IMG/VR virus record: IMGVR_UViG_3300032312_001422
Location: 128,001-192,000 of that record
Strand: one strand, 5' to 3'
DNA length: 64,000 bases
Source: a virus
Taxonomy: Duplodnaviria; Caudoviricetes
A model generated the notes under the pieces. The model was not told where the DNA came from and ran no database searches. It worked only from the letters and a program-made list of their open reading frames with translations. The translations under genes and the position numbers were made by a program. How positions within the stretch are numbered: position 1 is the first letter of the stretch; each line of letters begins with the position of its first letter. Shown here piece after piece: positions 43,722 to 64,000 of the stretch.

Positions 43722-44013
43722 CTTAAACCGTAAAGATCAATGGGAAAAGCTCTTAAAAGAAGTAACCAAAGAACAAGTACCCATTAATGTCTTACGTTAT
43801 ATTACTGTTAATTTAAAAGATGGCACCAGTGTAGATGTCAACGTTGCTGAGATGATTGACGAAGGTGCCGATCCTGCTGTAGTGGAAAAAATTATCAATG
43901 CCAAACTAGAAGCCTTAGATGACATCATAAAAGATGTCGATTTTCATATAAGCGTAGACAGCGTGGCCAAAGTAATTCAACCGTTCACAGACAACTTACT
44001 CAAAGACTTATGA
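43666..44013 (+). CDS. hypothetical protein
   Basis: ORF track. Confidence 0.7.
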   Translation: MSKQQEPKKPRRPRSKRLNLNRKDQWEKLLKEVTKEQVPINVLRYITVNLKDGTSVDVNVAEMIDEGADPAVVEKIINAKLEALDDIIKDVDFHISVDSVAKVIQPFTDNLLKDL

Positions 44014-48925: not shown

Positions 48926-50738
48926 AACGTTCTCTTAACCACTGCCAGTCAAAACTGAATTTTAATCGTTCGTAGTCGCCGCCAACTTCTGTGTAATACA
49001 CCACAGCATCTTTTGCTCCACAAATACTCCAATTGGCAAAATCTCCATTGGCAATGGTTAGCCAAACATTAAGTCTATGCTCAGTTTCTACAGTAGGCGC
49101 CGTGGCCATAAAATGTTGTAGTTTGATCACTTCACGAAAAGCAGTTCGCCAAGTCATCCACGGTGACTGATTGTAATGTGCTACACCACTTAGTATAGGA
49201 ACACTCTCGTGTGGTTGACTCAGGGTAAAGTCTATGCCTGGTGTGTTATTCTCCAGTACCAATCGTTTATTATAAGCAATAACACCTTGGTGTCCATACT
49301 CTAATCCGTTTACAGGATTACGAGCATTAAAAATATAATGTTTGGGTTCTTGGAAGTAATCGGGTAACCAGGTATGCCAAGGAAAAGTATTGCCCAAAAC
49401 TTCTAGTTTAGCAAACACAGCAAAGAACCAAGGTGTTGAGCTTTGTCTAGCAGCTTCTTGATAGGCAGCTGTTCGTCCGTTTATGCCACGTACCCATTTT
49501 GCATGATAGTTACTTTGGTAACACAAGTGATCGTACCATTTTTCTTCGTCAGGTTCGCCATTGCTGATATACACTATGTCAAGGCAATCACGGCCTCCTA
49601 GGTAGTCGTTTAACCTCGGTTTCGCGTCCTCAATGTAGGGATAATCGTAGATTTGTGTACGCAAATCCTCCTTGATATCTCGAGGTACTATCGCAGTAGC
49701 ACCTGCGGTACTAATTCGCACTACAGCACGGTCTTTCTTGGTCCATAAGCAAGGGTTATCGTGTAACACCAGATCTTTTTGGTTGGTGAACACAGCGTAC
49801 GGAGTTTCAAACTTGTAGTTTTTGATTTCGGTTACCAAGTCATCGGTTGCGTATTGATGCACTGGCATACCAAAACGTTCTACCTGCTGATCGTCACAAT
49901 AGTTGATAACATTGAACCAATCCAGTAACTCTAACTCAAACATCTGTTGGGTAAAACTGGGAACATGTATATAAAATGTATCTCCACGACGTTGATTGCC
50001 TGTGGGAAAGCAATGTATCATTTCTCGCTGTGCTTCGCTAGGATGCCAGGTAAAGTCAAACTGTGTATAATCACATACGCTACTAATGATCCATACATAT
50101 TCTGTAGTGGCCATGTTCATAATACGCTTGAACACGTTGAGATGGTTGTCCACATATCTTGTTCGCTTGATATCAGGATGATCTAATTTTAACAAATCAA
50201 ATTGATGACGTGCTATGCCGCCATTTAAGAAGTCCATGTAGAATATTTGTGTGGCACCGGCACGTATGCGTTGATCAGTCATGTACTTGACGCCGGCTGT
50301 GCCTGGATATACAGGGCCACCTTCACGTTGCCATTGTGTGGGGAAACGATATTCATAGTCAGGTTCAGTACGATCTGGATGCCAGCTATAATCAAACTTG
50401 CTATCGTCTATGTTGTCTGGCACTTGCCACAGGGCTCGCTCAGGACGACGTCGAACACTTTGTTCTGTGTGAAAGTGCCATTGTTGATTTTGATGAGTGC
50501 GTCGATTGGCCAGATATACTTCGCCGTTACGTTGATGCTGGCTAGGCCACACATGCAAGTGATCAGTTTCCCAAGGTACTGGCACGTATTCAAAGTCGAA
50601 GCCTGTGTAATCATTGCCCCCATAAATATACCAGTAGTGTGTAGTCTTACATTTATTAGCGGCATCTTCCAAAGAAGTCGCAGGTTGTTCAAAAGCAAAC
50701 AAGCCCGGTTTATCGCCAAAGTAAAAAACATCAAACAT
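48903..50738 (-). CDS. multi-module glycosyltransferase-like (GT-A-like) protein
   Basis: Three related modules (..D[VI][FV]Y..; [YW][FW][WY]I..; FD[FY].W.P). Confidence 0.55.
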   Translation of the reverse strand: MFDVFYFGDKPGLFAFEQPATSLEDAANKCKTTHYWYIYGGNDYTGFDFEYVPVPWETDHLHVWPSQHQRNGEVYLANRRTHQNQQWHFHTEQSVRRRPERALWQVPDNIDDSKFDYSWHPDRTEPDYEYRFPTQWQREGGPVYPGTAGVKYMTDQRIRAGATQIFYMDFLNGGIARHQFDLLKLDHPDIKRTRYVDNHLNVFKRIMNMATTEYVWIISSVCDYTQFDFTWHPSEAQREMIHCFPTGNQRRGDTFYIHVPSFTQQMFELELLDWFNVINYCDDQQVERFGMPVHQYATDDLVTEIKNYKFETPYAVFTNQKDLVLHDNPCLWTKKDRAVVRISTAGATAIVPRDIKEDLRTQIYDYPYIEDAKPRLNDYLGGRDCLDIVYISNGEPDEEKWYDHLCYQSNYHAKWVRGINGRTAAYQEAARQSSTPWFFAVFAKLEVLGNTFPWHTWLPDYFQEPKHYIFNARNPVNGLEYGHQGVIAYNKRLVLENNTPGIDFTLSQPHESVPILSGVAHYNQSPWMTWRTAFREVIKLQHFMATAPTVETEHRLNVWLTIANGDFANWSICGAKDAVVYYTEVGGDYERLKFSFDWQWLRERFNLSKPR

Positions 50739-51903
50739 GTATAACTTATCCAGTCATTACGAAAATATATTCCAACACCTACAAACTATTATAACAGATC
50801 CTAGGGTGGTTTACCTACACCCTTTTGGATCAACTCTACCAGAAAATCTAGAATTTCGAAGAAATGACATTGGTGCAGGACAGTTCCGTGGACCAATGTT
50901 TATCTTTTACGATCAAGAGCCCCTGGACCTTGAATACAACCGACCTGTGTTTGAAGCCATTACTGCTCTCGAACAAAAACCGTTTATTCTAGTATCCACT
51001 GAACGTGACAGTGATGAAGCCACTCGTATCTGTGAAGAGTTTCCATTTTTGCACATCAATTATTTCTTTCATATATTTGCTGCACACGATTGGTTCCGTG
51101 GACATCAGATGCTTCCAGGAATACAACTACCGCATGAACGTACATTAGAAAAAACATATATATCGTTTAATCGACTGACCAGTAATCGTCGTATCTATCG
51201 TAGTTTGCTAGTCAACGAGTTGTACAAAAACAATTTACTAGAACACGGCTATGTGAGTTACAGTCACCATTGTCCAGATGATGGAGCATTTGATGACAAC
51301 CTACGCCGAGGAGTTCCTGAATATGAGTTTGACTCTGCATATATCGAAGAAGCTATTGCTAACATAAAACAAATACCAGAGTTGCGTATAGACTTTGCTG
51401 GACAAGACATTCCCAATCAAAGTATGCTGCTGAGTCCTATGACAGAGCTAATGAAGAGCTTTGTATTTTTAGTAACAGAGACTTGCTTCTTTCAAACAAA
51501 AACACACTTGACAGAAAAGATATTTAAACCCATTGTGTTACGTATGCCGTTTGTACTTGCCGGCTGTGCTCATAACTTGGCATATTTGCGTAGCTATGGA
51601 TTTCGTACATTCGGTGATTACTGGGACGAAAGTTACGACACCATAGAAGATCCTGTACTACGCATCAAAGCTATCACACAGGTAATAAAAACCGTTAGCG
51701 AATTAAGTACAGAACAACAAATGACCATGTTGCTAGACATGCAACCTATATTGGAACATAACTATAATTTGTTCAATGATCCTGCGTTTATCAAACGTGA
51801 ATGGGATCATTTAATAAATTCTATCACAGCAATAGATCGTGCGTTTCAGCGTATACCCCCATACCGACTAGACGTTAGGACTGGTTTACCCGTCCCCATT
51901 TAA
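50737..51903 (+). CDS. glycosyltransferase-like protein (GT10/fucosyltransferase-like TEK motif)
   Basis: FLVTETCFF...HLTEKIFKPIVLRMPF. Confidence 0.55.
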   Translation: MYNLSSHYENIFQHLQTIITDPRVVYLHPFGSTLPENLEFRRNDIGAGQFRGPMFIFYDQEPLDLEYNRPVFEAITALEQKPFILVSTERDSDEATRICEEFPFLHINYFFHIFAAHDWFRGHQMLPGIQLPHERTLEKTYISFNRLTSNRRIYRSLLVNELYKNNLLEHGYVSYSHHCPDDGAFDDNLRRGVPEYEFDSAYIEEAIANIKQIPELRIDFAGQDIPNQSMLLSPMTELMKSFVFLVTETCFFQTKTHLTEKIFKPIVLRMPFVLAGCAHNLAYLRSYGFRTFGDYWDESYDTIEDPVLRIKAITQVIKTVSELSTEQQMTMLLDMQPILEHNYNLFNDPAFIKREWDHLINSITAIDRAFQRIPPYRLDVRTGLPVPI

Positions 51904-52087
51904 TTTGATCCCATACACGCTCATGTATAAAGTATAGAACAGTATTTGTTACCAATTGAATAGTTGCTATACTGCCCGCAATAACAAAATTTCCAGATAT
52001 CAAATAACTGATCCCAAACGTAGCACTACTACCGGTTATGCGCCAGGTAATAGTTTTTATTAAACTCCGTTTGGGTTTATCAATCAC
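51875..52087 (-). CDS. DUF2061-like small membrane protein
   Basis: RSLIKTITWR...YFIHERVW. Confidence 0.8.
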   Translation of the reverse strand: MIDKPKRSLIKTITWRITGSSATFGISYLISGNFVIAGSIATIQLVTNTVLYFIHERVWDQIKWGRVNQS

Positions 52088-52941
52088 TTTAATCCCAGCT
52101 CTTTACGAATCTTTGTGGCACTGATGTCAGTGATTGTTTCATCAAACGTTTCTTCCCCGCTGGTGTATCCTACTCCGCGGCCCCAACCAATGTGTACAAT
52201 GTTAGGAACTACCTGTATTTCATATTGCCCTTGATAGATAGGATCTAAGTCACGTCTAATAAATGCCTTGACTTTTGCCACCTCAAAAGGATTTGATCCT
52301 TGCCAGCCCTGTACATCACGTATCTGAATAACCACTTGCCCTGTACGCTGTATTAGTCGATCAAACAAGGCACGGTGCCCGTCATGCCAAGGTTGCCAAC
52401 GTCCCAACATTTGTACAGTTTCCTTCTTCCAATCAAACGTAGGACGGCGGCGATTGTCAATTATGTGTTGACCAATAAACTCAGCCCATTTGTCTGCATC
52501 TTGTTCTGTAACACGGAAGTCATACACGTCAGGCTCAACAAAGGCCGCATTGGTGTCGGCATAACGACCTTCGCGGATAGTGTCTACCCAGATGGTCCAG
52601 TCAGCTTTGAAGTTGTTACGCATCTCCACCAAGGGTGCAACAAAGTCACAGATCACATAGTCGCCGCCAGCTTCTATGCTGAACTGAAACATGCGTAGGC
52701 TTTGGCGGATACGTCCTTCATTGCTAAAATCCCAGTCGTTGTACTTGCGGCGAATGTCGTCGGCATTAAACCAAGTTACCTTAGCATCAAACCCGGTTAC
52801 TGGAAGTTGTTCGGCAGAATACATACTCATTGTTCCGTGCTGTTCCAAATACTTTTTAAGAGCACCGGCCAAGGTTGTTTTACCCGCACCCGGCAGGCCC
52901 ATGATTAAAATACGTTGTGTCATTTTATTTTCCTTTACCAA
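52084..52941 (-). CDS. APS-kinase-like P-loop domain fused to a HIGH-type nucleotidyltransferase
   Basis: GLPGAGKTT, NADDIR...DFS.EGR; LGRWQPWHDGH. Confidence 0.8.
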   Translation of the reverse strand: MVKENKMTQRILIMGLPGAGKTTLAGALKKYLEQHGTMSMYSAEQLPVTGFDAKVTWFNADDIRRKYNDWDFSNEGRIRQSLRMFQFSIEAGGDYVICDFVAPLVEMRNNFKADWTIWVDTIREGRYADTNAAFVEPDVYDFRVTEQDADKWAEFIGQHIIDNRRRPTFDWKKETVQMLGRWQPWHDGHRALFDRLIQRTGQVVIQIRDVQGWQGSNPFEVAKVKAFIRRDLDPIYQGQYEIQVVPNIVHIGWGRGVGYTSGEETFDETITDISATKIRKELGLK

Positions 52942-53477
52942 ATATCTGATGGTACTTCGGTGTTTCTAAATCCTTGATACAAACTCATTCTGTAGTTAGT
53001 GACTGGATGTTGCATGCCGTGTGGTATGCGTGTAGGACCTATCAGCATATATCCTGTGTTTGCTCGATAGGGTACGGTGTGCCATGCACCTTCGTCATAG
53101 CAACAGGTTCCCATATTTTCTGCACCGTCGCTGAGATAAACTTGTATATTAACACAATGATTGGGGCTGACATCTCCATCGTGTATGGTATTGATATAGC
53201 CGTTGTCGTCGTACCATAGTTGTGGACCATTTTGATATAACGGTCCAACACGTGGCTCGGCTGTTCTAACATATTTTTTTAATTCTGCATGTATCTGTTG
53301 TGCAAGATATTCATTAACTGATAAACTCAACTGTTGACGTTTTACATCTGTGTTATCATCTGAAATTTGATCCCATGTGGATCTGTCTTGATCAAAACTA
53401 GATGTCAGTCTTTGATAAAGAGCTGGACTAAACACATCAGTAAGTTGATAAAAATTTTCTGTAATTTTTACGAGCAT
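52935..53477 (-). CDS. 2OG-Fe(II) oxygenase-like protein
   Basis: IHDGD (HxD-like)...IQVYL...PHG...R.S. Confidence 0.62.
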   Translation of the reverse strand: MLVKITENFYQLTDVFSPALYQRLTSSFDQDRSTWDQISDDNTDVKRQQLSLSVNEYLAQQIHAELKKYVRTAEPRVGPLYQNGPQLWYDDNGYINTIHDGDVSPNHCVNIQVYLSDGAENMGTCCYDEGAWHTVPYRANTGYMLIGPTRIPHGMQHPVTNYRMSLYQGFRNTEVPSDIW

Positions 53478-54949
53478 ACACGTACTCCGTACAGTTGCTC
53501 AAAGCGATCTGCATCCGCACGATCATTAACCATGGGCTCGCCGCGAATATTTAGACTGGTGTTTAACAACATGGGACAACCGGTCATTACATACCACTTT
53601 TCTAGGAGTTCTCTAATGCCTGAGCCATCAGCTGCAACCGTCTGTACTCGGCTAGTGCCGTCGTGATGCACAATAGCAGGAAAAGCGTCAGGCATGCGGC
53701 AATGTGCGACTGACTGCATATAAGGACTATCACTGAAGCCGCGGGGCATATCAAAAAATAACTCAGCTTGCTCAGCCAGGATAACTGGCGCAAATGGCCT
53801 AAACTTTTGTCTACGTTTGATTTCATTGACACGGTCTTTTATATCTGGTCCACGCGGGTCGGCGAGGAGACTTCGGTTCCCAAGGGCACGAGGTCCAAAT
53901 TCGGCTCGTCCACTAGCAACTCCAACGATTTTATCGCGGAGTAAACAATCCAGGACGGCATTGACGGGATAGTTGCCGCCAATTGTGTGACCAAGGTATG
54001 CGTTGTTGAAGTCAATTCTTTTGCCATAGGCGAGTGCAGCGGCACCAAGACTACTACCAGCATCGCCAGGATTAGGCATGATCCAAATTTTTTCAAAATA
54101 ATCACCAAGATTACGATTAGCTAAACAGTTTAGGGCAACCCCGCCCATGTAAACCAAATTTCTGCTCCAGCCAAAGTCTTTGGCTCGACGCATAACATTA
54201 TATATCAAATTTTCACAAAAAGCCTGGCTAGATGTGGCTATATCGTATTCTAGATGTTTGGCTAAAAATTCCTCATCTACACCCAGGTGCAAATTTTGTA
54301 CAAATTCAATATCCCACTCATTGGACATTAATGCATTTTTAATTTGTGCAGCAACTTTAGGTTCGCCATAGGCTGCCATGCCCATTAATATGTATTCTTC
54401 TTCATTGGGTTTTAATCCCACACGCTGAGTCATTGCTGAGTAAAACAGGCCTATACTGTGTGGATATCTCTGTCCCCATAGTCTATGATATTTTGCTCGA
54501 CCATTATCGTAGTGAGCACCCCATATACTAATTGTGTCCCATTCACCAATAGCATCAATAACAACCACTGTGGCTCGATCAAATGTGCTAGTCTGGAATC
54601 CTGCTGCGGCGTGACTTAAATGATGACTGTGTGTGCTAACAGGAGTGCCAGAAAAGAATCCGCCTAGTTGTTGTTTAAGTACCTGGCGTGTGGTTAACTT
54701 ATCCCACTCTAGACCTTGCCCACTATATAACTGACGTAACTGTTTCTTCCACGGGGTTTCGTAGTAGGCAATGTGATCAATATGACGCCACCCGTTACAG
54801 GACAAGTCAAGAAGCATTTCCTTGTGTAGGTTGGGGTCATTCTTAATCTTGCTGTAGCGTTCTGAGTGCCCGGCATATAAGATTTCACCGTTGTTGATTA
54901 CTGTTGCGGCGGCATCATGGAAGCCAGCCGATATTCCTAATATGTTCAT
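53468..54949 (-). CDS. carbamoyltransferase (NodU/CmcH/TobZ family)
   Basis: HDAAA, SERYSK, HHLSHAA, DAIGE, GGVALNC, EFGPRALGNRS, RPFAP, LNTSLN. Confidence 0.95.
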   Translation of the reverse strand: MNILGISAGFHDAAATVINNGEILYAGHSERYSKIKNDPNLHKEMLLDLSCNGWRHIDHIAYYETPWKKQLRQLYSGQGLEWDKLTTRQVLKQQLGGFFSGTPVSTHSHHLSHAAAGFQTSTFDRATVVVIDAIGEWDTISIWGAHYDNGRAKYHRLWGQRYPHSIGLFYSAMTQRVGLKPNEEEYILMGMAAYGEPKVAAQIKNALMSNEWDIEFVQNLHLGVDEEFLAKHLEYDIATSSQAFCENLIYNVMRRAKDFGWSRNLVYMGGVALNCLANRNLGDYFEKIWIMPNPGDAGSSLGAAALAYGKRIDFNNAYLGHTIGGNYPVNAVLDCLLRDKIVGVASGRAEFGPRALGNRSLLADPRGPDIKDRVNEIKRRQKFRPFAPVILAEQAELFFDMPRGFSDSPYMQSVAHCRMPDAFPAIVHHDGTSRVQTVAADGSGIRELLEKWYVMTGCPMLLNTSLNIRGEPMVNDRADADRFEQLYGVRVCS

Positions 54950-55565
54950 TGATTTTTTCTGCTATTCTTTTGTGTCCCAACTCCAATGGATGTCCTAATG
55001 GTCCTCTTGGGCAATCTCCTTGCCACATATAAATTCCCTCAAACGGCCATCCTGGGTAATGGTTAGTATCGACCCCATCACATAGGTATTGTACACTATT
55101 CCATGCACCGTTGTAAAGCTGTTGATCAATTCCATTTAGGCTAACCATGATGTAAGGTTGATTGATGGATTTTAAATATCCCTGTAATGCCAATATCTGT
55201 GAAACCCATTTTTTATGAGCATGTAAATCATTGTAGTGATATTGGTAGTATGTTTCTAGCCAAGTTAGCCCAAACATCTGAGAGTGTAACTTTCCCACAT
55301 TTACATCCATTGTGCTACGTCGTCGGTCATTCCATATTTCCATTCGACTAGGCTCAGTCCACTGTACAATAACTAGATCAAATTTGTGTTGAACAGTTTC
55401 TTCTACAACCAATCTAAACGTACGATCATTGGATGCACCACCCATGCCTAAATTTTTTACTGAGCGATTGTTTAGTTTTCCAATCAAGTTAGGCCAAGCA
55501 GATTCTGCAGGATTTGGTAATTCTGCACCCTCTGTGAAACTACACCCAACTGCTAATATGTTCAT
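54915..55565 (-). CDS. SGNH-hydrolase-like protein
   Basis: GCSFTEG; GGASNDR; GHPLELGH. Confidence 0.72.
   Translation of the reverse strand: MNILAVGCSFTEGAELPNPAESAWPNLIGKLNNRSVKNLGMGGASNDRTFRLVVEETVQHKFDLVIVQWTEPSRMEIWNDRRRSTMDVNVGKLHSQMFGLTWLETYYQYHYNDLHAHKKWVSQILALQGYLKSINQPYIMVSLNGIDQQLYNGAWNSVQYLCDGVDTNHYPGWPFEGIYMWQGDCPRGPLGHPLELGHKRIAEKINEHIRNIGWLP
54937..54964. repeat. 28-bp direct repeat, copy 1 (second copy at 55553-55580)
   Basis: CTAATATGTTCAT-NN-ATTTTTTCTGCTA; 26 of 28 positions identical. Confidence 0.8.
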
Positions 55566-56184
55566 AAATTTTTTCTGCTATGATCGTGTGTCCTTGTTCC
55601 AGTGGATGTCCGCCAGGTCCGTGCGGTGTACCAAATGTCCATTCAGTTGATCCTGAATATGGCCAACCAATGTATGAGTTTATATCTATGCGTTGAACTA
55701 AGTGTTCATGTTGATTTTGTTTTTTTATAAAATCAATATTCCAACTCTCAGCATTACACGCACTAAACATCACGCAAGGAACGGCATTTGCACGACAAAA
55801 CGTTTGTGTTAAAACAATTTGTCTTATCCATTTGGCATAATAATATCCAGGCACATCGTATGCTGTCATGTACTTGATTAGATCACGTCGATGATCTGAG
55901 CAAGTTTGCATTCTGCGATAATCCCTACCTGCCCACAAATCAGTAATACTGATATCATCGGCAAACTCTTGTCTAGCTGGATCTGACCACCCAACAACAA
56001 TCAATGAAGCGCCATCAAATACAGCATCCATTGTACGCTTAACTATGCGGTAGTTTCCAGTTGCTGGTTTACCCCAATTGGTTACAGGTTGTTTTAATTT
56101 TTTACCTAGTAATGTGGGCCAGGCCGTGTCACGGTCAGTTAATTCTTCGCCGTAAGTAAAGCTATCTCCGATACAGTAAATCAT
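55540..56184 (-). CDS. SGNH-hydrolase-like protein
   Basis: GDSFTYG; ATGNYR; GHPLEQGH. Confidence 0.72.
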   Translation of the reverse strand: MIYCIGDSFTYGEELTDRDTAWPTLLGKKLKQPVTNWGKPATGNYRIVKRTMDAVFDGASLIVVGWSDPARQEFADDISITDLWAGRDYRRMQTCSDHRRDLIKYMTAYDVPGYYYAKWIRQIVLTQTFCRANAVPCVMFSACNAESWNIDFIKKQNQHEHLVQRIDINSYIGWPYSGSTEWTFGTPHGPGGHPLEQGHTIIAEKIYEHISSWV

Positions 56185-56282
56185 TTATAGATAAATGGAT
56201 CTCTTTTACGCAGTTCTTTTAACTTCTTGCGATAGCGTAACTCTAGCTTAATGCGATTGTAAATGTTTCGTAACCAGTTCAT
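56181..56282 (-). CDS. 33-aa basic microprotein MNWLRNIYNRIKLELRYRKKLKELRKRDPFIYK
   Basis: Fills the intergenic gap; ATGA-coupled to 56184. Confidence 0.6.
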   Translation of the reverse strand: MNWLRNIYNRIKLELRYRKKLKELRKRDPFIYK

Positions 56283-57030
56283 TGAATTTTCCTTGCATCA
56301 AAACGGATGCGTCTTTGTGTGCTTGTTCCAGTGGATGTGTAGTTCCTATAGGGTATTTATTCTCTACTGCCCACTGATAAAAACCTCTTGGTGTTTTGGT
56401 TTGGTTACTTCCTGTTCCGGCCGGGAACCAAAACCAACGGCTATGATCTATCTGTTTTAACAAACTTGCAATTACTGTGTCTGCCGTATTGATTGTATGG
56501 TTATTGAATATACTGTTGTCTGCACAGGTAAACAAGAATGGTATTTGTTTTAACGTCAAATAGTTTTGTAAGTACGTTATTTCTTTAAGACTGCTGTATA
56601 TTTCCCAGTACTCTGATCCGCCCACATGACGATAAAATGACTCAGCAAAGTCTGCCACACCTGTTTGTTGAGCACGTTTAATGGTCTGCTTTTGTGCTTC
56701 TAATATATCCGCATCTTCTGTAACAAACTCTTCTCGAATGCTATCCAAGTTGGTTTGAATAGTCCATGCATTAATGGCATACCAAGGCGATTTCTTTTGC
56801 CGGGTATCATATGCAAACCTAAATTCATATCTGCCAGGAAATGTCCATGACACTAGGACTCCGGTAACTCCGCCTTGTTCACAACGTTCTATAGTGGTAC
56901 GTGCAATAGCATCGTTGCCAAAGCCAGGCCAGGCCACACACTCGTTGGCACCTAGTAGTGCTGTAAATGTGTTGGCAGGACTTTGTAGTTCACTGCCGTA
57001 AACAAAACTATCTCCGGCTGCTATAATCAT
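56248..57030 (-). CDS. SGNH-hydrolase-like protein
   Basis: GDSFVYG; GFGNDA; THPLEQAH. Confidence 0.72.
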   Translation of the reverse strand: MIIAAGDSFVYGSELQSPANTFTALLGANECVAWPGFGNDAIARTTIERCEQGGVTGVLVSWTFPGRYEFRFAYDTRQKKSPWYAINAWTIQTNLDSIREEFVTEDADILEAQKQTIKRAQQTGVADFAESFYRHVGGSEYWEIYSSLKEITYLQNYLTLKQIPFLFTCADNSIFNNHTINTADTVIASLLKQIDHSRWFWFPAGTGSNQTKTPRGFYQWAVENKYPIGTTHPLEQAHKDASVLMQGKFNELVTKHLQSH

Positions 57031-58093
57031 ATCCAGGCTTCATCATATCTATTTGCTGTTGTTTATAAGTGGCATCAGACCAGCAGTAATCAAATGTTGC
57101 TCGTACTCCATCTACTTCTATTTGGTATATGTCCAAATGACTACTAAGTATATCCCATATGTGTTGATAGTCAGCTGTTCCAAAACTCTTTGTTAACTCC
57201 ACTTGTCCAATGGGCAAGTATCCTAGACTCAATTGAGGGTCTGCAGGGTCACGGTTGTTGGCTATTAACCATTTACGAAACTCTATTTGTTCCTTGGTAT
57301 GCCATGGATTACTATCGCCTAGCAAAGTTACATCGTTGCCCCACTCTACGTCGAACTCACCCGAATAGTATTTTAATTCTGTAATAGATTCGCATACTGT
57401 TTCCGTAAGCTCTGGTGCATGTTCATCACGGAATACTTCAAACAATGTTTTGCCTATCTGTGTCCAATGCATATACACTCCGCCTAGCACACGATCATAT
57501 CCGTTGATGGCAAACCCTGTGCGATGTTCTCCTTTGAGATCATACCGCTGTGCCTGTAGGAATGTGGTAATCTGGCTTGGGCGTACCCAATAAGGTGCTG
57601 TTGATTCTTTGCGTTGACTTAGAATTAAGTTTTCCATCTCGTGACAGATATTGTTTAATTGTCGTATAGCATACTTTGTTTCGTAGTTGGCACGTCGATA
57701 ATAATCACTTAGTCCCCAGACAGTTCCTTGCAAGCGTTCAAAGTGATTGTGTAATTGATTCATTACTGCATGATTAACACCATTATCTGCGTAATCAAAT
57801 CCACGTACAGAGTCTGGCGTAAATGTTTCGGGTATAATATATTCGCAACTACTACTGTTGATTATATCAACTGCTTGATTAAGTTCGTCGCAAAGATATT
57901 CCAATGTGCGGGCTGTGCGAGGGAAGCCCATAAAACAAAAATTCTTTTCTAGCAAGCGACCACTTTGTAATTCTAGCTTTAATGCAGATATCCAATCCTT
58001 TGCCAATTGATTATCTGCAGCCGTGATTGTGTAATCAACTTGATTGTTGTAGTTTAAGGGATTACGTAGGATTACTTTAATTGATTGAGTCAT
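57008..58093 (-). CDS. hypothetical protein
   Basis: 361-aa ORF overlapping its neighbours. Confidence 0.8.
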   Translation of the reverse strand: MTQSIKVILRNPLNYNNQVDYTITAADNQLAKDWISALKLELQSGRLLEKNFCFMGFPRTARTLEYLCDELNQAVDIINSSSCEYIIPETFTPDSVRGFDYADNGVNHAVMNQLHNHFERLQGTVWGLSDYYRRANYETKYAIRQLNNICHEMENLILSQRKESTAPYWVRPSQITTFLQAQRYDLKGEHRTGFAINGYDRVLGGVYMHWTQIGKTLFEVFRDEHAPELTETVCESITELKYYSGEFDVEWGNDVTLLGDSNPWHTKEQIEFRKWLIANNRDPADPQLSLGYLPIGQVELTKSFGTADYQHIWDILSSHLDIYQIEVDGVRATFDYCWSDATYKQQQIDMMKPGYDYSSRR

Positions 58094-59387
58094 ACCATTC
58101 CAGTGCCGCAGGTCTCAAGGACATTATGTCTCTAAAAGTATACTGGTCTTTTCGAATTCTTTCAATCTCTAATGTTCTGGCCTTGCCTTTACGCAGGCCT
58201 GCTTGGTAAGTGTCAGGCCATTGTTCAGCAAAAGTGGGTCTTGTTTTGAGTTGAATCAGTATATCCCGTAACGGGCCGGTAAGAGGGCGTTCCCCAGGAG
58301 TGCCATTCACAATTTCGTCTATCCAAGGATGCAGTACATCTTTGGGTAGTGCCAACGGGCTCATAATGATGTCTGGGCTAAACGAGAACACCACTTTTGC
58401 TAAAACATCTACTCCGAGTTCTTGGGCAAGCGTTTGTATCGCTTGTACTTCAAAGAGTCCTGGTGTAGTAAGAGTGAAGTCCAAACGGATCTGGCGGCGG
58501 CTACGGTTGTATGCAAGTCCTTCGCGGATGTTCTCAAGCCACTGATCAAAATCAAGACCTGATCGAATATACTCTCCAATTCTGCCCGTGCCGTCGATGC
58601 TTGCACAGATTTGCCAGTCACGTAGCCCAGATAAAATATCCCTAAACAGATTAATACCTCTATAATTGATCCTACTAAGATTTGTGTTGTATCTAGCGTA
58701 AACATTTTTTCCATCTCCAAGTTCGATAATACGCTTCATGTAACGCCAGTGTTGCTCGTACATAAGCGGCTCTCCTCCCACCCAATACACCTCTTCCACT
58801 CGGTGCTCCTCAACAGCAGTGGCAAACTCTTGCTCTACCTGGGTGTCTTGAAACTTTTCTATTTGTATCTTGACTTCGGGACGCATCCAGTTGTTTTTAG
58901 GATTTGTCAAGTCGATCATTGCGTGTTGTCGTTGCTCACTCTCCCAAGCACTACTCAACATGTCACCGCACATGCGGCACTTAAAATTACAAAGGTTACT
59001 AAATCTGTAATCCCACGAAACTGGCTTCATTGTCGTGTAGCCTGTTGCATCAGTATGCTCTATGGCTTGTAAATACTTATGCCCAAACAGCTGGTTAAAA
59101 TAACTACGGTAAACGTCTGTGTTTAATAGTTTGTCGTTGCACACTTCGCACTCGGGTAGTGTTTCCCCAGCCATCATACGACGACGCACACTACGCATAT
59201 GATCGCTGTTCCAATGTTGATCTAATGTAACGGGAATATACTGGCCTGTGCCACTTTTGGTATCAATATACTGCTCAAAGTTTTGTGCTGGCTCGCGGCT
59301 GGCGCAACACATGCGTCTTTCTGTTTGTGGACTCAAATATGTGTGTGTCCAAGGTGCCATGCACAAGGTTGCTGGTTTAAATTGCAT
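58077..59387 (-). CDS. radical SAM protein with N-terminal Twitch domain
   Basis: LCMAPWTH...MCC...CEVC; CNFKCRMC; VGGEPL. Confidence 0.88.
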   Translation of the reverse strand: MQFKPATLCMAPWTHTYLSPQTERRMCCASREPAQNFEQYIDTKSGTGQYIPVTLDQHWNSDHMRSVRRRMMAGETLPECEVCNDKLLNTDVYRSYFNQLFGHKYLQAIEHTDATGYTTMKPVSWDYRFSNLCNFKCRMCGDMLSSAWESEQRQHAMIDLTNPKNNWMRPEVKIQIEKFQDTQVEQEFATAVEEHRVEEVYWVGGEPLMYEQHWRYMKRIIELGDGKNVYARYNTNLSRINYRGINLFRDILSGLRDWQICASIDGTGRIGEYIRSGLDFDQWLENIREGLAYNRSRRQIRLDFTLTTPGLFEVQAIQTLAQELGVDVLAKVVFSFSPDIIMSPLALPKDVLHPWIDEIVNGTPGERPLTGPLRDILIQLKTRPTFAEQWPDTYQAGLRKGKARTLEIERIRKDQYTFRDIMSLRPAALEWYDSIN

Positions 59388-60447
59388 TTATATACTCAAT
59401 TGCTTGTTGTATTTTATCAACATTGGTTTTTGTAACATGATTGTAAAATGTATGATAGAAATGATTATGATTATAGTCAACTAATTCTTGTATTGCAGGC
59501 GAGTCTAACAAATCGTCTTGATCAAAGTTATCAATAAATTCAAATATTTTTTTATATCTAATACTGTCAACGTCTTTATCATAATCCAATTTAAATTCAG
59601 ATTCAAAAGATTCAAAGCCTAATAATTTTAATCTTTCTATACTGCGTTCTTGTGATACAAGCACAAAGCAACAACCAGTTACAATTGATTTCATTATTTT
59701 TTCTGTCAAATAGGCAACAGGTTGATCATGGCAAGAAACAAACATTGATTCACATGTCCACAATAACTTAGAATCTTTAAGTACACGATTATCGAGCGTC
59801 CACGTATGTCCGGGGGCTTTGATAGGATTTAAATGTATGTGATTTAATAATTCAATTTCTTTGTCTGTGATGTTTAATCCAAATTCAGATATCAACTGTT
59901 GGCAATACAATGTAAATGTTGTTTGATTATATTCAGCCGACGGAGTATTGCAAAATGTATATTGTAATTTATTGTCAAATTTATGTAGTAACTTTGCAGT
60001 CGCCAATGCTTTATGCATAGCGTTTCTATTAGACAGAGAACCATGTGTAAATTTTCTTGTGTGAAGTTTTGTATACTCTGGTTTTTGTAAAAAAGGAATA
60101 ATTGTGTGTAGATGTTCTATATAAAATATTTTTGTACGCTTAAACTCAGGGCCTTGATAAAATTGTGAAGTTAATAAAACTATCTGCTTGTCTGCAAATG
60201 CCGGATCGTTTTCCAATCTCTGTAGCATGTCAGTATTGAAACTTTCCCCAAATGCACACAGAATATAGATATCATAGTCTATCGGTGGATACTTAGGATT
60301 CCACCCAAGGCGGTCTATTAGATAGATACGTTTATCAGTTGATATTTGTTTTAAAAAAACAAGCAATTCTCCAAACTCTTTATCCAGTGGATAAGGGTAA
60401 TTATTTAAATTTCCGTTGTATGTAGTATGGTTGGCCTTAACCCACAT
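59377..60447 (-). CDS. glycosyltransferase-like protein (TEK motif, AT-rich)
   Basis: TCESMF...YLTEKIMKSI; related to 50737-51903. Confidence 0.5.
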   Translation of the reverse strand: MWVKANHTTYNGNLNNYPYPLDKEFGELLVFLKQISTDKRIYLIDRLGWNPKYPPIDYDIYILCAFGESFNTDMLQRLENDPAFADKQIVLLTSQFYQGPEFKRTKIFYIEHLHTIIPFLQKPEYTKLHTRKFTHGSLSNRNAMHKALATAKLLHKFDNKLQYTFCNTPSAEYNQTTFTLYCQQLISEFGLNITDKEIELLNHIHLNPIKAPGHTWTLDNRVLKDSKLLWTCESMFVSCHDQPVAYLTEKIMKSIVTGCCFVLVSQERSIERLKLLGFESFESEFKLDYDKDVDSIRYKKIFEFIDNFDQDDLLDSPAIQELVDYNHNHFYHTFYNHVTKTNVDKIQQAIEYINAI

Positions 60448-61654
60448 ATCCCATTGCCCGTGCTATTTCTTCATGTGTATCCATAAAGTTTTGTTTGCGA
60501 TGTTCGTCTGTGCGTTGCATTTTAAACAAGAACTCCTTACCGTCACTGCCGGTGCCATTTTTAATAAATTTAATTACACTATCAATTTCTTGTTGATATT
60601 TGTTATTTTTCCAAAATGTTGTTTTTAGTTTGTTTAGTACCAATTCCTGTGCTGCCGGAGTCATCATTTGTATGCTCATGTGATCCGGGCTATGCATCAT
60701 ATTAAAATAGATGTCACCAAATCTTTTTGTATCTGCCCAATCCAGTAGTTCATCTAAGTAGTAAACGTTTTGTATGTTTATGGTAAAGCATAACTGTGTG
60801 GTAATATTAGGAGTGTCAACAGCCTGCGTAAAATGCACATCATCAATAATTTTATTTGCTAATTCCCAATTGGCTCCGTAACGTTCATATTCAAAACGTG
60901 AGCCTACGTTGTCAATACTAAAGGCAATGTCAACTCGGCCAAACTCTTTCCACATTAAAATTTGTGGGGTACCAGGTTGTTGTGTAGCATTGGTGTTGTA
61001 GTGTATATCAATATTTTTACTGTATCCTTGATCTACTGCGTACTGTAATAAATCAAAGTGTTCTTGTATCATCCAGGGCTCGCCACCAGTGAATTCAAAG
61101 TACCGAATGTTGGGCAACAACTCACGCATGTTATCCCAGAATGTTTCAGTCTTGCGTGGCCATGCACCTTGCCGTAACCAAGTGTAGGCAATGTGTTCTT
61201 TTTTATTAATGCCTGGCATATAAGCAAGTTCTTCTTCGGCCCACTTGCTCGAACTCCACGATCCGCATATACGACATTTAAGATTACAAATGTTTCCTAG
61301 CTTTAGATCAACAAACCATAGCTGATCTGGATCATCGTTATCCCAATCCACTTGCTGATATAACTCTTTCAAACGAACTTGACTGTGTATACGTTTGCTG
61401 TCACGTCCCGCCGACTCTTCTTCCCAACAGCGACTACAGGTTGCAGGCTTTTCACCGCGTCTAAATTGTCTGCGTAAGTTTTGCATGTATTCACTGTGAT
61501 ATGCCACTTCCAAATTGGTTTCATTTAAGTCATACTTGTTGCCCAACTCATCTGTAATTTCTTCGTGTGCCATACAACAAGGTCGTGTAGTTCCCATCGG
61601 GCTGGCTTCGATACTAATCCAGGGCAACATACAAATTGTCTTAGGTAGGTTCAT
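60437..61654 (-). CDS. radical SAM protein with N-terminal Twitch domain
   Basis: ICMLPWI...PCC...CSRC; CNLKCRIC; TGGEPW. Confidence 0.88.
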   Translation of the reverse strand: MNLPKTICMLPWISIEASPMGTTRPCCMAHEEITDELGNKYDLNETNLEVAYHSEYMQNLRRQFRRGEKPATCSRCWEEESAGRDSKRIHSQVRLKELYQQVDWDNDDPDQLWFVDLKLGNICNLKCRICGSWSSSKWAEEELAYMPGINKKEHIAYTWLRQGAWPRKTETFWDNMRELLPNIRYFEFTGGEPWMIQEHFDLLQYAVDQGYSKNIDIHYNTNATQQPGTPQILMWKEFGRVDIAFSIDNVGSRFEYERYGANWELANKIIDDVHFTQAVDTPNITTQLCFTINIQNVYYLDELLDWADTKRFGDIYFNMMHSPDHMSIQMMTPAAQELVLNKLKTTFWKNNKYQQEIDSVIKFIKNGTGSDGKEFLFKMQRTDEHRKQNFMDTHEEIARAMGYVG

Positions 61655-62984
61655 AATCTTTTAAATTGGCTAGTTCCGGGAATGTTTCCCAAAAATCTTC
61701 ATTGCGTACTGTATCTAGTTTAGCACACTCCTCAACAAAGCGTGGCCACAGGTGACTTTGATCTGCACCTTTTAATAAATTCAATGTGCTACGGAATCCA
61801 TTGGTTGCACGTTTAAGATTGTCTTGTGACTGCAACCACTCGATATGTTGTTCGTATGCAGGCACAATAACATCACGTTTAAACTGTTCTGGAAAGATAT
61901 CTATGCGATACCATTCCGGGCTTTGGCAAATATTTACATTAAAGTCTTTGGCTTTAATCAGCCCCAACTCAGTCCACTCTCGATGGAAATCCAAAACGTG
62001 CAACACATTCATTGAACTGATAGTGGCACTGATATAAAAGTCCACATGCGGCACTTCTGCCTGCATGCGTTGACGGTTATCCACGGCTTGTGCCCAATCT
62101 GTTCCTTTACGCATCAGCTCGGCTCTGACTCCCGATGCATCTAGGCTGGCGCCAACACTAACATTCTTAAAGTGTTTCCAATAATCAAACACATGTTTAT
62201 CTTTGTAAGCCAACTCGCTGAAATTGGTGTTGTACTGAATACGCACATCTGTTTTACCGGCTTCAATCAACTTCTCCAGCAAGTAATAATGTTCTTTCAT
62301 AATTAGGGGTTCGCCACCAGCAAAGTACACCTGTTCAAGATGAGGTATGTGTGGCTCCATCTGTGCTAGCATACCGTCTTCGTCTCCGGTGGTGTACTCT
62401 ACACGAGCCATATCACGGCCAAGCACATCAGGAACACGATTATACAACTTGACATGATCGTTAAACCAGTTACTGCTGAAAATAGGCCCACAGCTGCGAC
62501 AACGGAAGTTACAAAGGTTGCTAAAACGAACGTCCCAATAACGTATTTTGAATTCAGGATTTGTGCCATCATCTTGTGTCCTTTCGATTTCATCTATATG
62601 ATGTCCATAGTTACGATTGGCATCGTTACGCATACTAAAAAATCCGTTGCGTTCTTGTTCGTAACATTTATTACACTCTTTACTCTTGATTTCTGTAACC
62701 ATGTTCTTACGCAGGTTACGATATGGTTCTTGATTCCACACTTGTTCCATGGTGTTTTTACGCAGGTCTCCAACTGGATGCCAATAGTCTGCTACACAAC
62801 AAGGATAAGCACGGCCATCCGGAAAAGCATGTAAGTGCATCCAAGGCAACATACAAAATGTTTCGCTTTTCATTAATAAATCTTGTTGTGTTTCACTGAG
62901 TTTGTCAGGTTCAATAAAATAAGGTTTACGTGCCATGTAGTCGTAACCCTTGTTGTAAAAGTCTTTTGTTGTATTTTCACTCAT
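61641..62984 (-). CDS. radical SAM protein with N-terminal Twitch domain
   Basis: FCMLPWMH...PCC...CNKC; CNFRCRSC; AGGEPL. Confidence 0.88.
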   Translation of the reverse strand: MSENTTKDFYNKGYDYMARKPYFIEPDKLSETQQDLLMKSETFCMLPWMHLHAFPDGRAYPCCVADYWHPVGDLRKNTMEQVWNQEPYRNLRKNMVTEIKSKECNKCYEQERNGFFSMRNDANRNYGHHIDEIERTQDDGTNPEFKIRYWDVRFSNLCNFRCRSCGPIFSSNWFNDHVKLYNRVPDVLGRDMARVEYTTGDEDGMLAQMEPHIPHLEQVYFAGGEPLIMKEHYYLLEKLIEAGKTDVRIQYNTNFSELAYKDKHVFDYWKHFKNVSVGASLDASGVRAELMRKGTDWAQAVDNRQRMQAEVPHVDFYISATISSMNVLHVLDFHREWTELGLIKAKDFNVNICQSPEWYRIDIFPEQFKRDVIVPAYEQHIEWLQSQDNLKRATNGFRSTLNLLKGADQSHLWPRFVEECAKLDTVRNEDFWETFPELANLKDYEPT

Positions 62985-63735
62985 ATAGTATATCTTTGTT
63001 TGTTAGTTGTGGTATTAGTATTTCTCGTAACCATCCTTCTGTTGCTTCTGGAAACTTAGGATGGAAATGATCATCTTCTAAATATTTGCGTTTTCTAGCC
63101 CAGTCGCCGTAGTAGTCGTCGTCATGTAACGGCAACCACGGTTCTTTGTCTAAGGACAAATTTAATTTAGCAAGTTCGGCACCGAAGTCAGCAAAATGCG
63201 GCGATGGAAAACTGTGTTTTTTATAATTCAAAAATGATGTATAACAATATGTGTATTGGTTAATCTTTAGATAGTTAGATAAATTTTGCATTGCCAACCA
63301 ACTGTGCAATGTTAAACTGTGGATAGACTGATATTTTGAATAGTCCACCAATGTTTTTATCAACGGTGTTGGGTTTTTTGCATTCCACCAGGCCCCGCCT
63401 ACTACAAGTTCATTGTAATCATCGTATTGGTAATTGAATGAATACTCTGTTGAAAAATTTGAATTTTTAGCATCAGTGATCCAGTCAATTCTGTTGATAC
63501 CGGACCACATTGCAATTACCAAGGTATCTTCTGTTGGTAATTTGTTCTTTTCTAGGTAAAGCATGATGCTTTTGCTAATGTGATCGTTACCTACTCCGGA
63601 TATGGCAAGATTATGTATCTGCATGCCGGTCCAGTCAGCTAACAAATTTGCCCAGCTCGAATGTCCGGGTATACGTCCTGTGTGATGCGTAAAACTACAC
63701 CCCGAAACTACTAAATGTTTAAATTTAGATTTCAT
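62977..63735 (-). CDS. SGNH-hydrolase-like protein
   Basis: SGCSFT; GVGND; DHFHP. Confidence 0.68.
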   Translation of the reverse strand: MKSKFKHLVVSGCSFTHHTGRIPGHSSWANLLADWTGMQIHNLAISGVGNDHISKSIMLYLEKNKLPTEDTLVIAMWSGINRIDWITDAKNSNFSTEYSFNYQYDDYNELVVGGAWWNAKNPTPLIKTLVDYSKYQSIHSLTLHSWLAMQNLSNYLKINQYTYCYTSFLNYKKHSFPSPHFADFGAELAKLNLSLDKEPWLPLHDDDYYGDWARKRKYLEDDHFHPKFPEATEGWLREILIPQLTNKDILYE

Positions 63736-64000
63736 TGTACCACTCTGCCAAATTGGAGAACGTCTCTACAAAGTTCTTACTGCGACGTTGATCGTATTGT
63801 GTAAAAAATTGTTTGAAGTCCTGTTGTAGTATACTTTGTTCTGCAGCACCCACATGCGGAGTTATAACCACATCAAGATAATCAATCAGGCGTTTTAATT
63901 GGTCAATTTCAAACGCATGGAACACACCAAAGTCTTTGTGCGTTTTATAAAATTCACTTAATTTTGTTCTGTATTGTGTTCGAATTGTGTCTGGTAGTAC
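63725..64000 (-). CDS. C-terminal part of a truncated gene, probably another radical SAM paralog
   Basis: Frame is open to the window end; C-terminus YDQRRSKNFVETF resembles LDTVRNEDFWETF of 61641. Confidence 0.55.
   Translation of the reverse strand, partial: VLPDTIRTQYRTKLSEFYKTHKDFGVFHAFEIDQLKRLIDYLDVVITPHVGAAEQSILQQDFKQFFTQYDQRRSKNFVETFSNLAEWYNEI

Follow-up and report, generated by a model that had tools for sequence, protein, structure and literature searches.

Variable genomic islands with tail fibres, GT8-type glycosyltransferases and radical SAM cassettes were described in pelagimyophages and cyanomyophages as the host recognition cluster (HRC), and their genes were proposed to modify the host O-chain (Zaragoza-Solas et al. 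2020, PMC7029224). T4-like phages are known to collect accessory genes in the tail-fibre island (PMC7029224). Genes for glycosylation of the capsid and tail tube were reported in mycobacteriophages (Freeman et al. 2023, as given in ref. 80 of PMC12582341). These genes and the PBCV-1 capsid glycosyltransferase A64R resemble the locus analyzed here in that predicted soluble phage or virus glycosyltransferases are found beside structural genes. To our knowledge, virion glycosylation in mycobacteriophages and PBCV-1 involves only glycosyltransferases, and tailoring by radical SAM, carbamoyl or SGNH enzymes is not known there. Among radical SAM sugar enzymes, we take BtrN, the butirosin 2-deoxy-scyllo-inosamine dehydrogenase, to be the archetypal Twitch enzyme, with DesII and BlsE as relatives. 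The radical SAM family to which the phage enzymes belong, NF033640 (N_Twi_rSAM) of NCBIfam, has a four-cysteine Twitch before the CxxxCxxC motif and exists as a catalogue entry only; a literature search on it found no paper and no function or assigned reaction, in agreement with the initial annotation, which had called the pathway uncharacterized.

The window, a stretch of 64,000 nucleotides whose positions become genome coordinates when 128,000 is added, belongs to the 289-kb genome of an uncultured freshwater T4-like jumbo phage. The initial annotation described a near-continuous minus-strand array of tailoring genes at 51875-64000, and all its named parts were found there (Table 1). This array makes up the 3' half of a longer gene train, gap-free and some 25 kb in length, on the minus strand (genome 179,875-204,540), which begins past the tail-fibre genes of the phage; the 525-, 658- and 667-aa genes upstream of it are tail-fibre PHROGs. 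Neighboring genes of the train overlap by 4-35 nt nearly throughout, and its three intergenic gaps are each ≤80 nt. As judged from sequence, the train is a conserved, translationally coupled phage operon. The DUF2061 gene that closes it also follows the kinase-nucleotidyltransferase gene in several relatives. Beyond the end of the train, the adjoining NDP-sugar epimerase/dehydratase and DegT aminotransferase genes probably represent a sugar supply.

Table 1. Features of the operon and related genes within the window (window positions).
Feature	Position	Strand	Evidence
R0, solitary sixth N-terminal-Twitch radical SAM copy, 115-aa N-terminal extension	4765..6291	+	NF033640 252 bits, Cys pattern
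NDP-sugar epimerase/4,6-dehydratase and DegT-type aminotransferase	46894..48925	+	PF01370 E 4e-44, PF01041 E 1.7e-75
611-aa protein, C-terminal domain like GT-A protein u299	48903..50738	-	BLAST 24% over 228 aa, E 3e-10
C5, fifth 'TEK'-family gene, convergent on operon end	50737..51903	+	hhalign to C family prob 99.1, E 8e-19; BLAST 47% to C2
DUF2061, small hydrophobic protein, final gene of train	51875..52087	-	PF09834 E 4.5e-22
KinNT, P-loop kinase (APS-kinase-like) and HxGH nucleotidyltransferase	52084..52941	-	APS_kinase, NMNAT-type, phrog_10255 E 8e-43
u180, probable small 2OG-Fe(II) oxygenase, variable cassette	52935..53477	-	HxD...H...RxS motif
O-carbamoyltransferase (CarbT), NodU/TobZ/NovN type, core gene	53468..54949	-	Carbam_trans_N E 5e-38, Carbam_trans_C E 3e-48
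S1, SGNH-like	54915..55565	-	G7, S9, N46, H192; weak GDSL/DUF6071 matches
S2, SGNH-like	55540..56184	-	33% identical to S1
S3, SGNH-like, copy retained in conserved core	56248..57030	-	orthologues in 54 loci
u361, conserved core protein	57008..58093	-	AF2 pLDDT 80; cyclophilin-like barrel and inserted helix bundle
R1, N-terminal-Twitch radical SAM	58077..59387	-	NF033640 292 bits; own clade
C1, 'TEK'-family protein, variable cassette	59377..60447	-	TEK motif; paralogues C2-C4
R2, N-terminal-Twitch radical SAM	60437..61654	-	NF033640 337 bits
R3, N-terminal-Twitch radical SAM	61641..62984	-	NF033640 398 bits; SPASM E 1.1e-12, residues 44-108
S4, SGNH-like, variable cassette	62977..63735	-	missing from loci L009 and L013
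R4, 449-aa N-terminal-Twitch radical SAM, 3' end (91 codons) in window	63725..64000	-	NF033640 283 bits

The three full radical SAM paralogues noticed in the array (R1-R3) all exceed the curated whole-protein cut-off of NF033640 (170 bits). R4, R5, R0 and a seventh copy at genome 5319-6365 also belong to the family, and the scores of the whole set range between 207 bits (seventh copy) and 398 bits; R5, the fifth copy, is next after R4 outside the window and shows 281 bits. A fourth gene had been taken as a probable partial copy: it is a radical SAM gene, but a whole one cut by the window edge, and its complete ORF runs beyond it (genome 191725-193074). R0 is the gene at 4765 for which the same layout had been pointed out. 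This layout, with the Twitch domain ahead of the radical SAM domain, was confirmed by Pfam (SPASM/Twitch PF13186 at residues 8-108, PF04055 from residue 119 and CxxxCxxC at 123-165) and by the cysteine pattern; it is not a new observation, because it is what defines NF033640. R1 shows cysteines at 9, 27, 80 and 83, followed by C133xxxC137xxC140, and four invariant cysteines stand ahead of C158xxxC162xxC165. Both the Twitch four-cysteine set and CxxxCxxC are kept in 284 of 285 unique orthologues. R1 to R5 form five separate orthologous clades in the tree (SH-aLRT 98-100) and share 21-31% pairwise identity, as diverged paralogues. Thus, compared with the catalogue entry, the phage carries five diverged paralogues as a fixed ordered set among glycosyltransferases. 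The family is large: R3 has at least 6592 homologues, a search with the N_Twi profile at E≤1e-30 retrieved 6,369 clusters (50% identity), and viral clusters account for nearly all of its nearest neighbors in the Atlas. R4 is 50% identical to a protein of Ralstonia phage RsoM2USA.

The likeness to BtrN consists of a single predicted auxiliary [4Fe-4S] cluster with four cysteines, the C-x17-C ... CxxC spacing and a carbohydrate-related setting. However, Twitch is C-terminal in BtrN and N-terminal in the phage enzymes, and sequence similarity is marginal: positions 25-92 of the N_Twi profile match residues 168-237 of BtrN weakly (E 0.07-0.12), and BlsE is matched with an E of 0.006. The phage enzymes are not BtrN-type members, in view of the N-terminal Twitch, and BtrN is used here as a working analogy.

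Glycosyltransferase genes are found in the upstream part of the operon, outside the window. The predicted model of u299 (locus L005, 9332-10231; pLDDT 80) is of GT-A type: every Foldseek match at E≤1e-3 (eight in all, three of them sugar-phosphate nucleotidyltransferases) has the GT-A-type nucleotide-sugar fold, although TM scores reach only 0.3-0.4. The best of them is A64R of PBCV-1 (2p6w, 1.7e-4), and the DGD motif of u299 (D67-G68-D69) is invariant. D1 and D2, which had no hit in a Pfam search, can be weakly assigned as GT8-like; the D1 profile matches glycogenin-1/GT8 at E 2e-4, a weak match confined to the first 110 residues. The 'TEK' family (C1-C5) has the motif TEK...PF(I/V)..G; C1 has four or five paralogues and is missing from the loci of the closest relatives. 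The motif and the paralogues bear out the family that had been called glycosyltransferase-like, while no HMM family match accompanies that name. The nearest named Atlas cluster of C1 is GT10 at 0.80, which is a lead only. The family was not placed among the GT10 fucosyltransferases, with no PF00852 match at E≤10 and no GT10 PDB chain in a profile search.

The carbamoyltransferase call was firm. Carbam_trans_N and Carbam_trans_C score 132 and 164 bits (cut-offs 24 and 27), NovN, GdmN and TobZ are matched at E 1e-50 to 1e-38 with NovN best (1.3e-50), and orthologues are found in 60 loci. The two-domain architecture is shared with TobZ, NovN, GdmN and NodU, but at 493 aa the phage protein falls short of their 576-702 aa, and its 136 bits are far under the NodU equivalog cut-off of 1000 bits. 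KinNT had been read as an APS-kinase fusion. The fusion and its P-loop kinase half stand, with Pfam APS_kinase at 30.3 bits (cut-off 21.1), but the APS kinase equivalog TIGR00455 scores 24 bits, under its cut-off of 138.7; the partner is an HxGH/ISxTxxR nucleotidyltransferase. Its C-terminal half is of NMNAT/cytidylyltransferase type (residues 178-246 match NMNAT-type) with no sulfurylase match, and the protein carries GLPGAGKTT, GRWQPWHDGH and ISATKIR motifs. Four genes for SGNH-like proteins are present as described, with Gly7, Ser9, Asn46 and His192 invariant across six paralogues. Searches by HMM and by PDB sequence tie them weakly to GDSL families: 16-21 bits against Pfam GDSL families, under the gathering cut-offs of 23.6-32.9, and PDB profile matches that span block I only (E 0.017-0.2). 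The 2OG oxygenase assignment of u180 is retained as probable on the HxD...H...RxS motif, conserved in eight homologues, but not as an HMM family match, since HMM and PDB sequence searches gave none. The u361 model shows VIA Z scores of 7-8 to cyclophilins and a TM score of 0.61 (by row) to Atlas Cyclophil_like2, and Foldseek against PDB gave no match.

Eighty viral contigs retain one core order, u331-u104-D2-D1-(u122)-u299-R5-R4-R3-R2-R1-u361-S3-CarbT-KinNT. By sequence comparison the array is not a chance arrangement, since this order recurs at 46-93% protein identity, far beyond chance. The core comprises two GT8-like genes, a GT-A gene, five radical SAM genes, u361, and SGNH, O-carbamoyltransferase and kinase-nucleotidyltransferase genes. 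SGNH, 'TEK' and oxygenase genes behave as cassettes: relatives with roughly 90% identity differ by their gain or loss at gene junctions, an insertion pattern that agrees with the combinatorial character suggested for the pathway. The gene u331, more variable than any other in the set, encodes a G/S/T/N-rich protein; its variability and composition are as expected for a receptor-binding tip. In content (fibre PHROGs, glycosyltransferases, radical SAMs and cassette turnover) the island corresponds to an HRC, vrlC/gp14 borders aside, but the conserved five-radical-SAM core, its family and its order are not in PMC7029224.

Two sub-modules of the system are also carried by RsoM2USA, a cultured and unrelated Ralstonia phage. 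One of them shows fibre-u104-D2-D1-u299-R5 among tail sheath, tube and fibre genes; in the other, R4 is accompanied by SGNH genes and a carbamoyltransferase alone. N_Twi arrays of Vibrio phages are not adjacent to fibre genes. Natural fusions join the family to glycosyltransferases, N_Twi-GT2 in P0155 and GT2/GT7C-N_Twi in P0225, both within arrays of several radical SAM and GT2-type genes, and in a Bacteroidales locus two GT2 and two GT4 genes come after a run of three N_Twi genes. At the level of gene organization, these GT2 fusions and bacterial arrays connect the family with glycans. What the data establish is the gene content, the family membership, the conservation and the association of N_Twi enzymes with glycosyltransferases; each chemical step and the acceptor are inferred.

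We consider it slightly more probable than its contrary that the operon encodes a pathway for glycan synthesis and tailoring in the cytoplasm, with a tail-fibre protein as the probable carrier. A glycan pathway, as suggested in the initial annotation, is supported indirectly by three predicted GT-A-type transferases, the O-carbamoyltransferase, the adjoining NDP-sugar enzymes, the N_Twi-GT2 fusions and the bacterial N_Twi/glycosyltransferase arrays. D2, D1 and u299, together with the variable 'TEK' proteins, would add sugars from NDP-sugars, supplied in part by the adjoining dehydratase and aminotransferase, and KinNT may activate a free sugar or polyol. R5 to R1 would each abstract a hydrogen atom from a C-H bond via the 5'-deoxyadenosyl radical, with the auxiliary [4Fe-4S] cluster, fully ligated by four cysteines, as an electron conduit as in BtrN; the outcome could be oxidation, epimerization, deoxygenation or cross-linking. 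The SGNH-like enzymes may put on or take off O-acyl groups, the TobZ/NovN-type enzyme would O-carbamoylate a hydroxyl, and the variable cassettes could generate strain-to-strain product diversity. The acceptor would most likely be a tail fibre or another virion protein encoded just upstream.

The initial annotation had left the target open between the virion, the host surface and a modified DNA base. The place of this chemistry bears on whether the glycan belongs to the virion or to the infected cell, whose LPS O-chain or capsule might be altered, for instance against superinfection by competing phages. O-chain modification has been argued for tail-fibre islands in which GT8 genes and 'radical SAM cassettes' occur (PMC7029224), and host-surface remodeling fits with the GT8-like D1 and D2 and with a cassette turnover like O-antigen diversity. 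However, a check of 29 proteins found no TM-like window in any of them, and the enzymes of the train lack membrane segments and signal peptides. The predicted catalytic serine of the SGNH-like proteins is residue 9, too near the N-terminus for a signal peptide to precede it, so these must be cytoplasmic. Furthermore, no phosphoglycosyl transferase, WecA-type initiating transferase or Wzx-type flippase was found in the whole phage genome, and a five-radical-SAM order kept from marine to freshwater phages would be odd for host-specific O-antigen chemistry. Host-surface remodeling is unlikely. A virion protein is favored as predicted target, since two phage lineages have these genes next to fibre genes and membrane segments are lacking, although adjacency could merely reflect the gathering of accessory genes in the island by T4-like phages.

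The radical SAM enzymes might instead modify protein or peptide side chains, for example by fibre cross-linking or epimerization, with the glycosyltransferases acting separately or only later. The nearest solved structures to the radical SAM core are the RiPP maturase TvgB, a cyclopropyl synthase (8VPO, E 4e-5), and viperin, rather than a sugar enzyme. Fibre genes are directly upstream, and other N_Twi fusion partners are TPR, Sel1 and subtilase-like domains. Because of these fusions, and of a Paenibacillus homologue within an ACP/KS/KR lipid-type cluster, N_Twi substrates may not always be sugars. On the other side, neither a precursor peptide nor a RiPP recognition element turned up in a train whose only gaps are the three short ones, the GT2 fusions and mixed arrays indicate sugars, and R4 keeps company with SGNH and carbamoyltransferase genes in RsoM2USA, which makes side-chain modification a rather improbable explanation.

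The characterized enzymes closest to the carbamoyltransferase (NovN, GdmN and TobZ) and to Twitch radical SAM chemistry (BtrN) act on antibiotics, and the adjoining DegT aminotransferase and dehydratase and the bacterial homologues in ACP-containing clusters would also suit a diffusible aminoglycoside- or nucleoside-like glycoside, or a modified sugar nucleotide, acting on the host or on competitors. Nevertheless, a scaffold synthase, an exporter and a resistance gene are all missing, two phage lineages have the operon within their virion tail module, and cassettes that change from strain to strain are more usual for surface glycans; we regard such a product as improbable, slightly more so than side-chain modification. 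Thymidine hypermodification pathways involve kinases and radical SAM enzymes, but hypermodification of the phage DNA with a sugar-bearing or carbamoylated base is very improbable for an operon that is placed in a tail-fibre island and has no DNA transglycosylase, DNA-binding domain or replication linkage.

Returning to the glycan pathway on a virion protein, a more specific proposal can be made tentatively, as a possibility that we hold with more doubt than confidence. The locus could represent an undescribed kind of virion glycosylation, in which soluble glycosyltransferases would glycosylate the tail fibre, five N-terminal-Twitch radical SAM enzymes beside or coupled to them would rewrite the chain, and strain-specific cassettes would diversify the coat. 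Such a system would occur widely among jumbo phages of aquatic habitats, and predatory Bdellovibrionota would have it too. Physical coupling is suggested by the existence of natural fusions between glycosyltransferases and radical SAM enzymes. We know of no characterized precedent in glycans for the proposed radical editing.

The fixed five-member set amid sugar-type genes gives the N_Twi family a concrete biochemical setting. Since RsoM2USA is cultured and carries two of the sub-modules, the system is open to laboratory work. Should its product be attached to tail fibres, it would matter for host recognition and for the arms races between hosts and abundant phages of fresh and marine waters, and the system would bring new radical reactions to carbohydrate enzymology.

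The stretch 51875-64000 is filled by 14 minus-strand ORFs and, when the genome was extended beyond the window (bases 128,001-192,000 of the 288,815 bp IMG/VR virus record), these proved to be the 3' half of a single unbroken gene train. Adjacent genes share overlaps of 4-35 nt almost throughout, and between u331, a fibre-like protein rich in G/S/T/N, and the DUF2061 gene only three gaps were found, of 63-80 nt, which agrees with the near-continuous operon proposed in the initial annotation. The 4194-aa protein at the upstream end shows no domain in the Pfam search, and the upstream genes of 525, 658 and 667 aa encode tail-fibre proteins according to PHROG. The T4 late-promoter motif TATAAATA showed no genome-wide enrichment and no occurrence on the operon strand, and sigma-70 promoter and terminator scans gave results at chance level. 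An apparent 80-nt intergenic gap results from a frameshift in the radical SAM gene R5, whose ORF in the record has 429 aa versus 460 aa in orthologues, with the residual C-terminus (NEHDKRRKTDFLKTF...) in a different frame. This shift in a T-run may be a homopolymer assembly error.

Five radical SAM genes, R1 to R5, were found in the train, where R5 comes after R4. R1, R2 and R3 show the SPASM domain at residues 8-108 and score 292-398 bits against the NCBIfam model NF033640 "N_Twi_rSAM", whose cut-off is 170 bits. The reversed order of the Twitch-like domain is real in these three genes; however, it already defines this curated but functionally unannotated family. The supposed partial copy at the window edge is indeed a radical SAM paralogue, but a whole gene of 449 aa, R4, that the edge cuts. 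The solitary gene R0, also taken to be of the same kind, exceeds the cut-off and is one of seven such copies in the genome. There are about five radical SAM genes besides these, and the phage's overall complement is unusually large. Alignment of six paralogues, with 21-31% identity, shows that all keep the four N-terminal Cys (C-x17-C-x41-CxxC), CxxxCxxC and GGEP. Both Cys patterns are intact in 284 of 285 unique orthologues, so that the genes are not degenerate, a possibility that the initial annotation had raised against its own reading. The phylogenetic tree divides R1-R5 into five distinct orthologous clades (SH-aLRT 98-100), R4 and R5 being a deep sister pair. The R3 orthologue profile had no match in PDB, and no relevant paper on NF033640/N_Twi_rSAM was found in the literature search.

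Coordinates of the features discussed (window positions unless another record is named)
Feature	Position	Strand	Remark
Gene train	genome 212,257-224,841 (4194-aa gene), tail-fibre genes, to window 51875 (DUF2061 gene)	minus	part after the tail-fibre genes about 25 kb
R0	4765-6291	plus	solitary N_Twi copy
R1	58077-59387	minus	Pfam SPASM ahead of radical SAM domain
R2	60437-61654	minus	Pfam SPASM ahead of radical SAM domain
R3	61641-62984	minus	Pfam SPASM ahead of radical SAM domain
R4, part in window	63725-64000	minus
R5 frameshift	L005:2094-2330 (genome about 193,094-193,330)		just past window end; 1-nt shift in T-run, 31 codons ahead of usual stop
Seventh N_Twi copy	genome 5319-6365	minus
Other radical SAM genes	genome 74082-74459, 147943-148596, 197266-197664, 238251-238676
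Dihydrofolate reductase	44010-44510	plus
SGNH-like	44479-45264	plus
Thymidylate synthase	45261-46172	plus
SGNH-like	46172-46897	plus
611-aa gene	48903-50738		u299-like domain
C5	50737-51903	plus	fifth "TEK" paralogue, convergent
KinNT	52084-52941		kinase-nucleotidyltransferase
u180	52935-53477		putative 2OG oxygenase
N_Twi genes of phage K566	L007, record 161,548-168,284
Paenibacillus sp. cluster	L135, GCA_015558675.1, 7965-18642

Among the tailoring genes, the assignment of the carbamoyltransferase (CarbT) is firm. The four SGNH-like proteins (S1-S4) have invariant Gly7, Ser9, Asn46 and His192 in common, with weak matches to the GDSL family. KinNT, described as an APS-kinase fusion, contains a P-loop kinase; its fused partner, in which the motifs HxGH and ISxTxxR are present, is a nucleotidyltransferase. 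The putative 2OG oxygenase keeps HxD...H...RxS in eight homologues, but has no HMM match. The "TEK" protein, described as glycosyltransferase-like in the initial annotation, is one of five paralogues (C1-C5); no HMM assigns this family, and it has no match in Pfam, PDB or PF00852. The orthologue profile of D1 matches glycogenin (GT8) in the N-terminal 110 residues (E 2e-4). The model of u299 shows a GT-A domain (pLDDT 80) in which DGD is invariant, and every significant Foldseek match is a GT-A-type nucleotide-sugar fold, with the PBCV-1 capsid glycosyltransferase A64R at the top. The 361-aa protein u361 is confidently modeled, its recognisable part being limited to a predicted cyclophilin-like barrel with a helical insertion; neither a sequence search of PDB nor Foldseek against PDB (E<=0.001) gave a match, its AFDB relatives are all uncharacterised, and the Atlas feature search was empty. 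The adjoining plus strand carries an NDP-sugar epimerase/dehydratase, a DegT aminotransferase and two further SGNH-like genes. The latter are interleaved with dihydrofolate reductase and thymidylate synthase genes, an odd spot for this cassette family.

A scan with the R3 pattern gave 80 viral contigs, onto all of which each operon protein was mapped. The core, in fixed order, consists of u331, u104, D2, D1, (u122), u299, R5, R4, R3, R2, R1, u361, S3 (plus S1 or S2), CarbT and KinNT, with protein identities from about 90% to 46%. In a marine subset R1 precedes R2 and u361 is mostly missing. L009 and L013, the nearest relatives at about 90% identity, have none of the cupin, C2, S4 and C1 genes, four cassettes whose positions in this phage coincide precisely with junctions between genes; these insertions fit the combinatorial character proposed for the pathway. 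The whole operon in phage order is also found in contigs assigned to bacterial MAGs, namely L095 (183 kb) and L096 (148 kb), both placed in a Haliscomenobacter MAG, and L089-L094, all of which are probably mis-binned phage contigs. Furthermore, N_Twi genes occur in K566, K567 and QD01, T4-like Vibrio phages available in culture, and are very distant from those of this phage (21-25% identity); K566 has four, located away from fibre genes and near PagP-like and NAD-salvage genes.

Of the 6,369 representatives that the paralogue profile retrieved at E<=1e-30, many join two or three complete Twitch-plus-radical-SAM modules in tandem within a polypeptide of 800-1400 aa (examples among P0122-P0147), which suggests that consecutive N_Twi paralogues work as one unit. 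Additional domains were also seen in proteins with a single module: P0155 has a C-terminal GT2 domain (PF00535, E 5.6e-17), P0225 an N-terminal GT2/GT7C domain, and others bear TPR, Sel1 or subtilase-like domains. GT2-type genes are present in the arrays of both glycosyltransferase fusions, together with numerous additional radical SAM genes (P0155) or UDP-glucose dehydrogenase (P0225). Bacterial homologues of R3 (31-41% identity) have heterogeneous neighbourhoods, therefore the substrate is not defined by genome context alone: in a Bacteroidales genome two GT2 and two GT4 genes follow a set of three N_Twi genes, a spirochaete has an array with ACP, methyltransferase and GT2, R3-like and R5-like genes co-occur in Bdellovibrionota, and the surroundings of one solitary homologue are uninformative. 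In Paenibacillus sp., an N_Twi gene lies within a cluster of ACP, KR, two KS, AMP-ligase, GT2, thioesterase, FabA and ACPS genes, possibly a glycolipid or aryl-polyene-like pathway.

On balance, it seems somewhat probable that the glycosyltransferases build a sugar chain on which the five N_Twi enzymes would each perform one radical tailoring step. In Twitch enzymes the auxiliary cluster has an electron-transfer role, as in BtrN, whose alignment with N_Twi is weak. A four-Cys auxiliary cluster with no open iron site suggests the same role here, which would make the editing oxidative or redox-neutral. The SGNH enzymes would process O-acyl groups, the TobZ/NovN-type enzyme would attach carbamoyl groups, and KinNT would activate a donor; KinNT could instead be an unrelated NAD-salvage-type gene.

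No TM-like hydrophobic window was found in the 29 proteins checked, the SGNH catalytic Ser, at residue 9, is too close to the N-terminus for a signal peptide to precede it, and the genome shows no Bac_transf, WecA-type or Wzx-type genes. These data point to operon chemistry that is predicted to be cytoplasmic and would need a soluble or host-supplied acceptor. Tail-fibre genes adjoin the operon here and in 80 of 80 relatives. In the cultured, unrelated Ralstonia phage RsoM2USA, fibre-u104-D2-D1-u299-R5 (217-223 kb) lies among tail sheath, tail tube and fibre genes, and SGNH-R4-SGNH-SGNH-CarbT at a separate genome site (123-129 kb). The predicted cytoplasmic chemistry, the fibre adjacency and the RsoM2USA placement favour a virion protein as the putative acceptor, by analogy with PBCV-1 A64R and with mycobacteriophage virion glycosylation (Freeman et al. 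2023, as cited in PMC12582341). Remodeling of the host surface is an unlikely alternative to this reading, and is in line with the host O-chain modification that PMC7029224 proposes for such islands. Radical modification of protein side chains is a little less likely still; the closest solved radical SAM core is that of the RiPP enzyme TvgB. We regard a diffusible glycoside as an improbable product of the operon, and DNA hypermodification as very improbable.

The N_Twi family and this type of island are already catalogued. The one paper found with a bearing on this region, PMC7029224, calls islands of this type "host recognition clusters" and describes GT8 genes and radical SAM cassettes there, and no relevant paper was found on radical SAM, glycosyltransferase and tail-fibre genes together in jumbo phages. 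The conserved five-paralogue radical SAM core among glycosyltransferases is undescribed, as is its cassette diversification. The glycosyltransferase-radical SAM fusions, the five-clade tree and the cassette insertions in relation to near-identical relatives are contributed here, and the split sub-modules of RsoM2USA provide a bench handle on the system.
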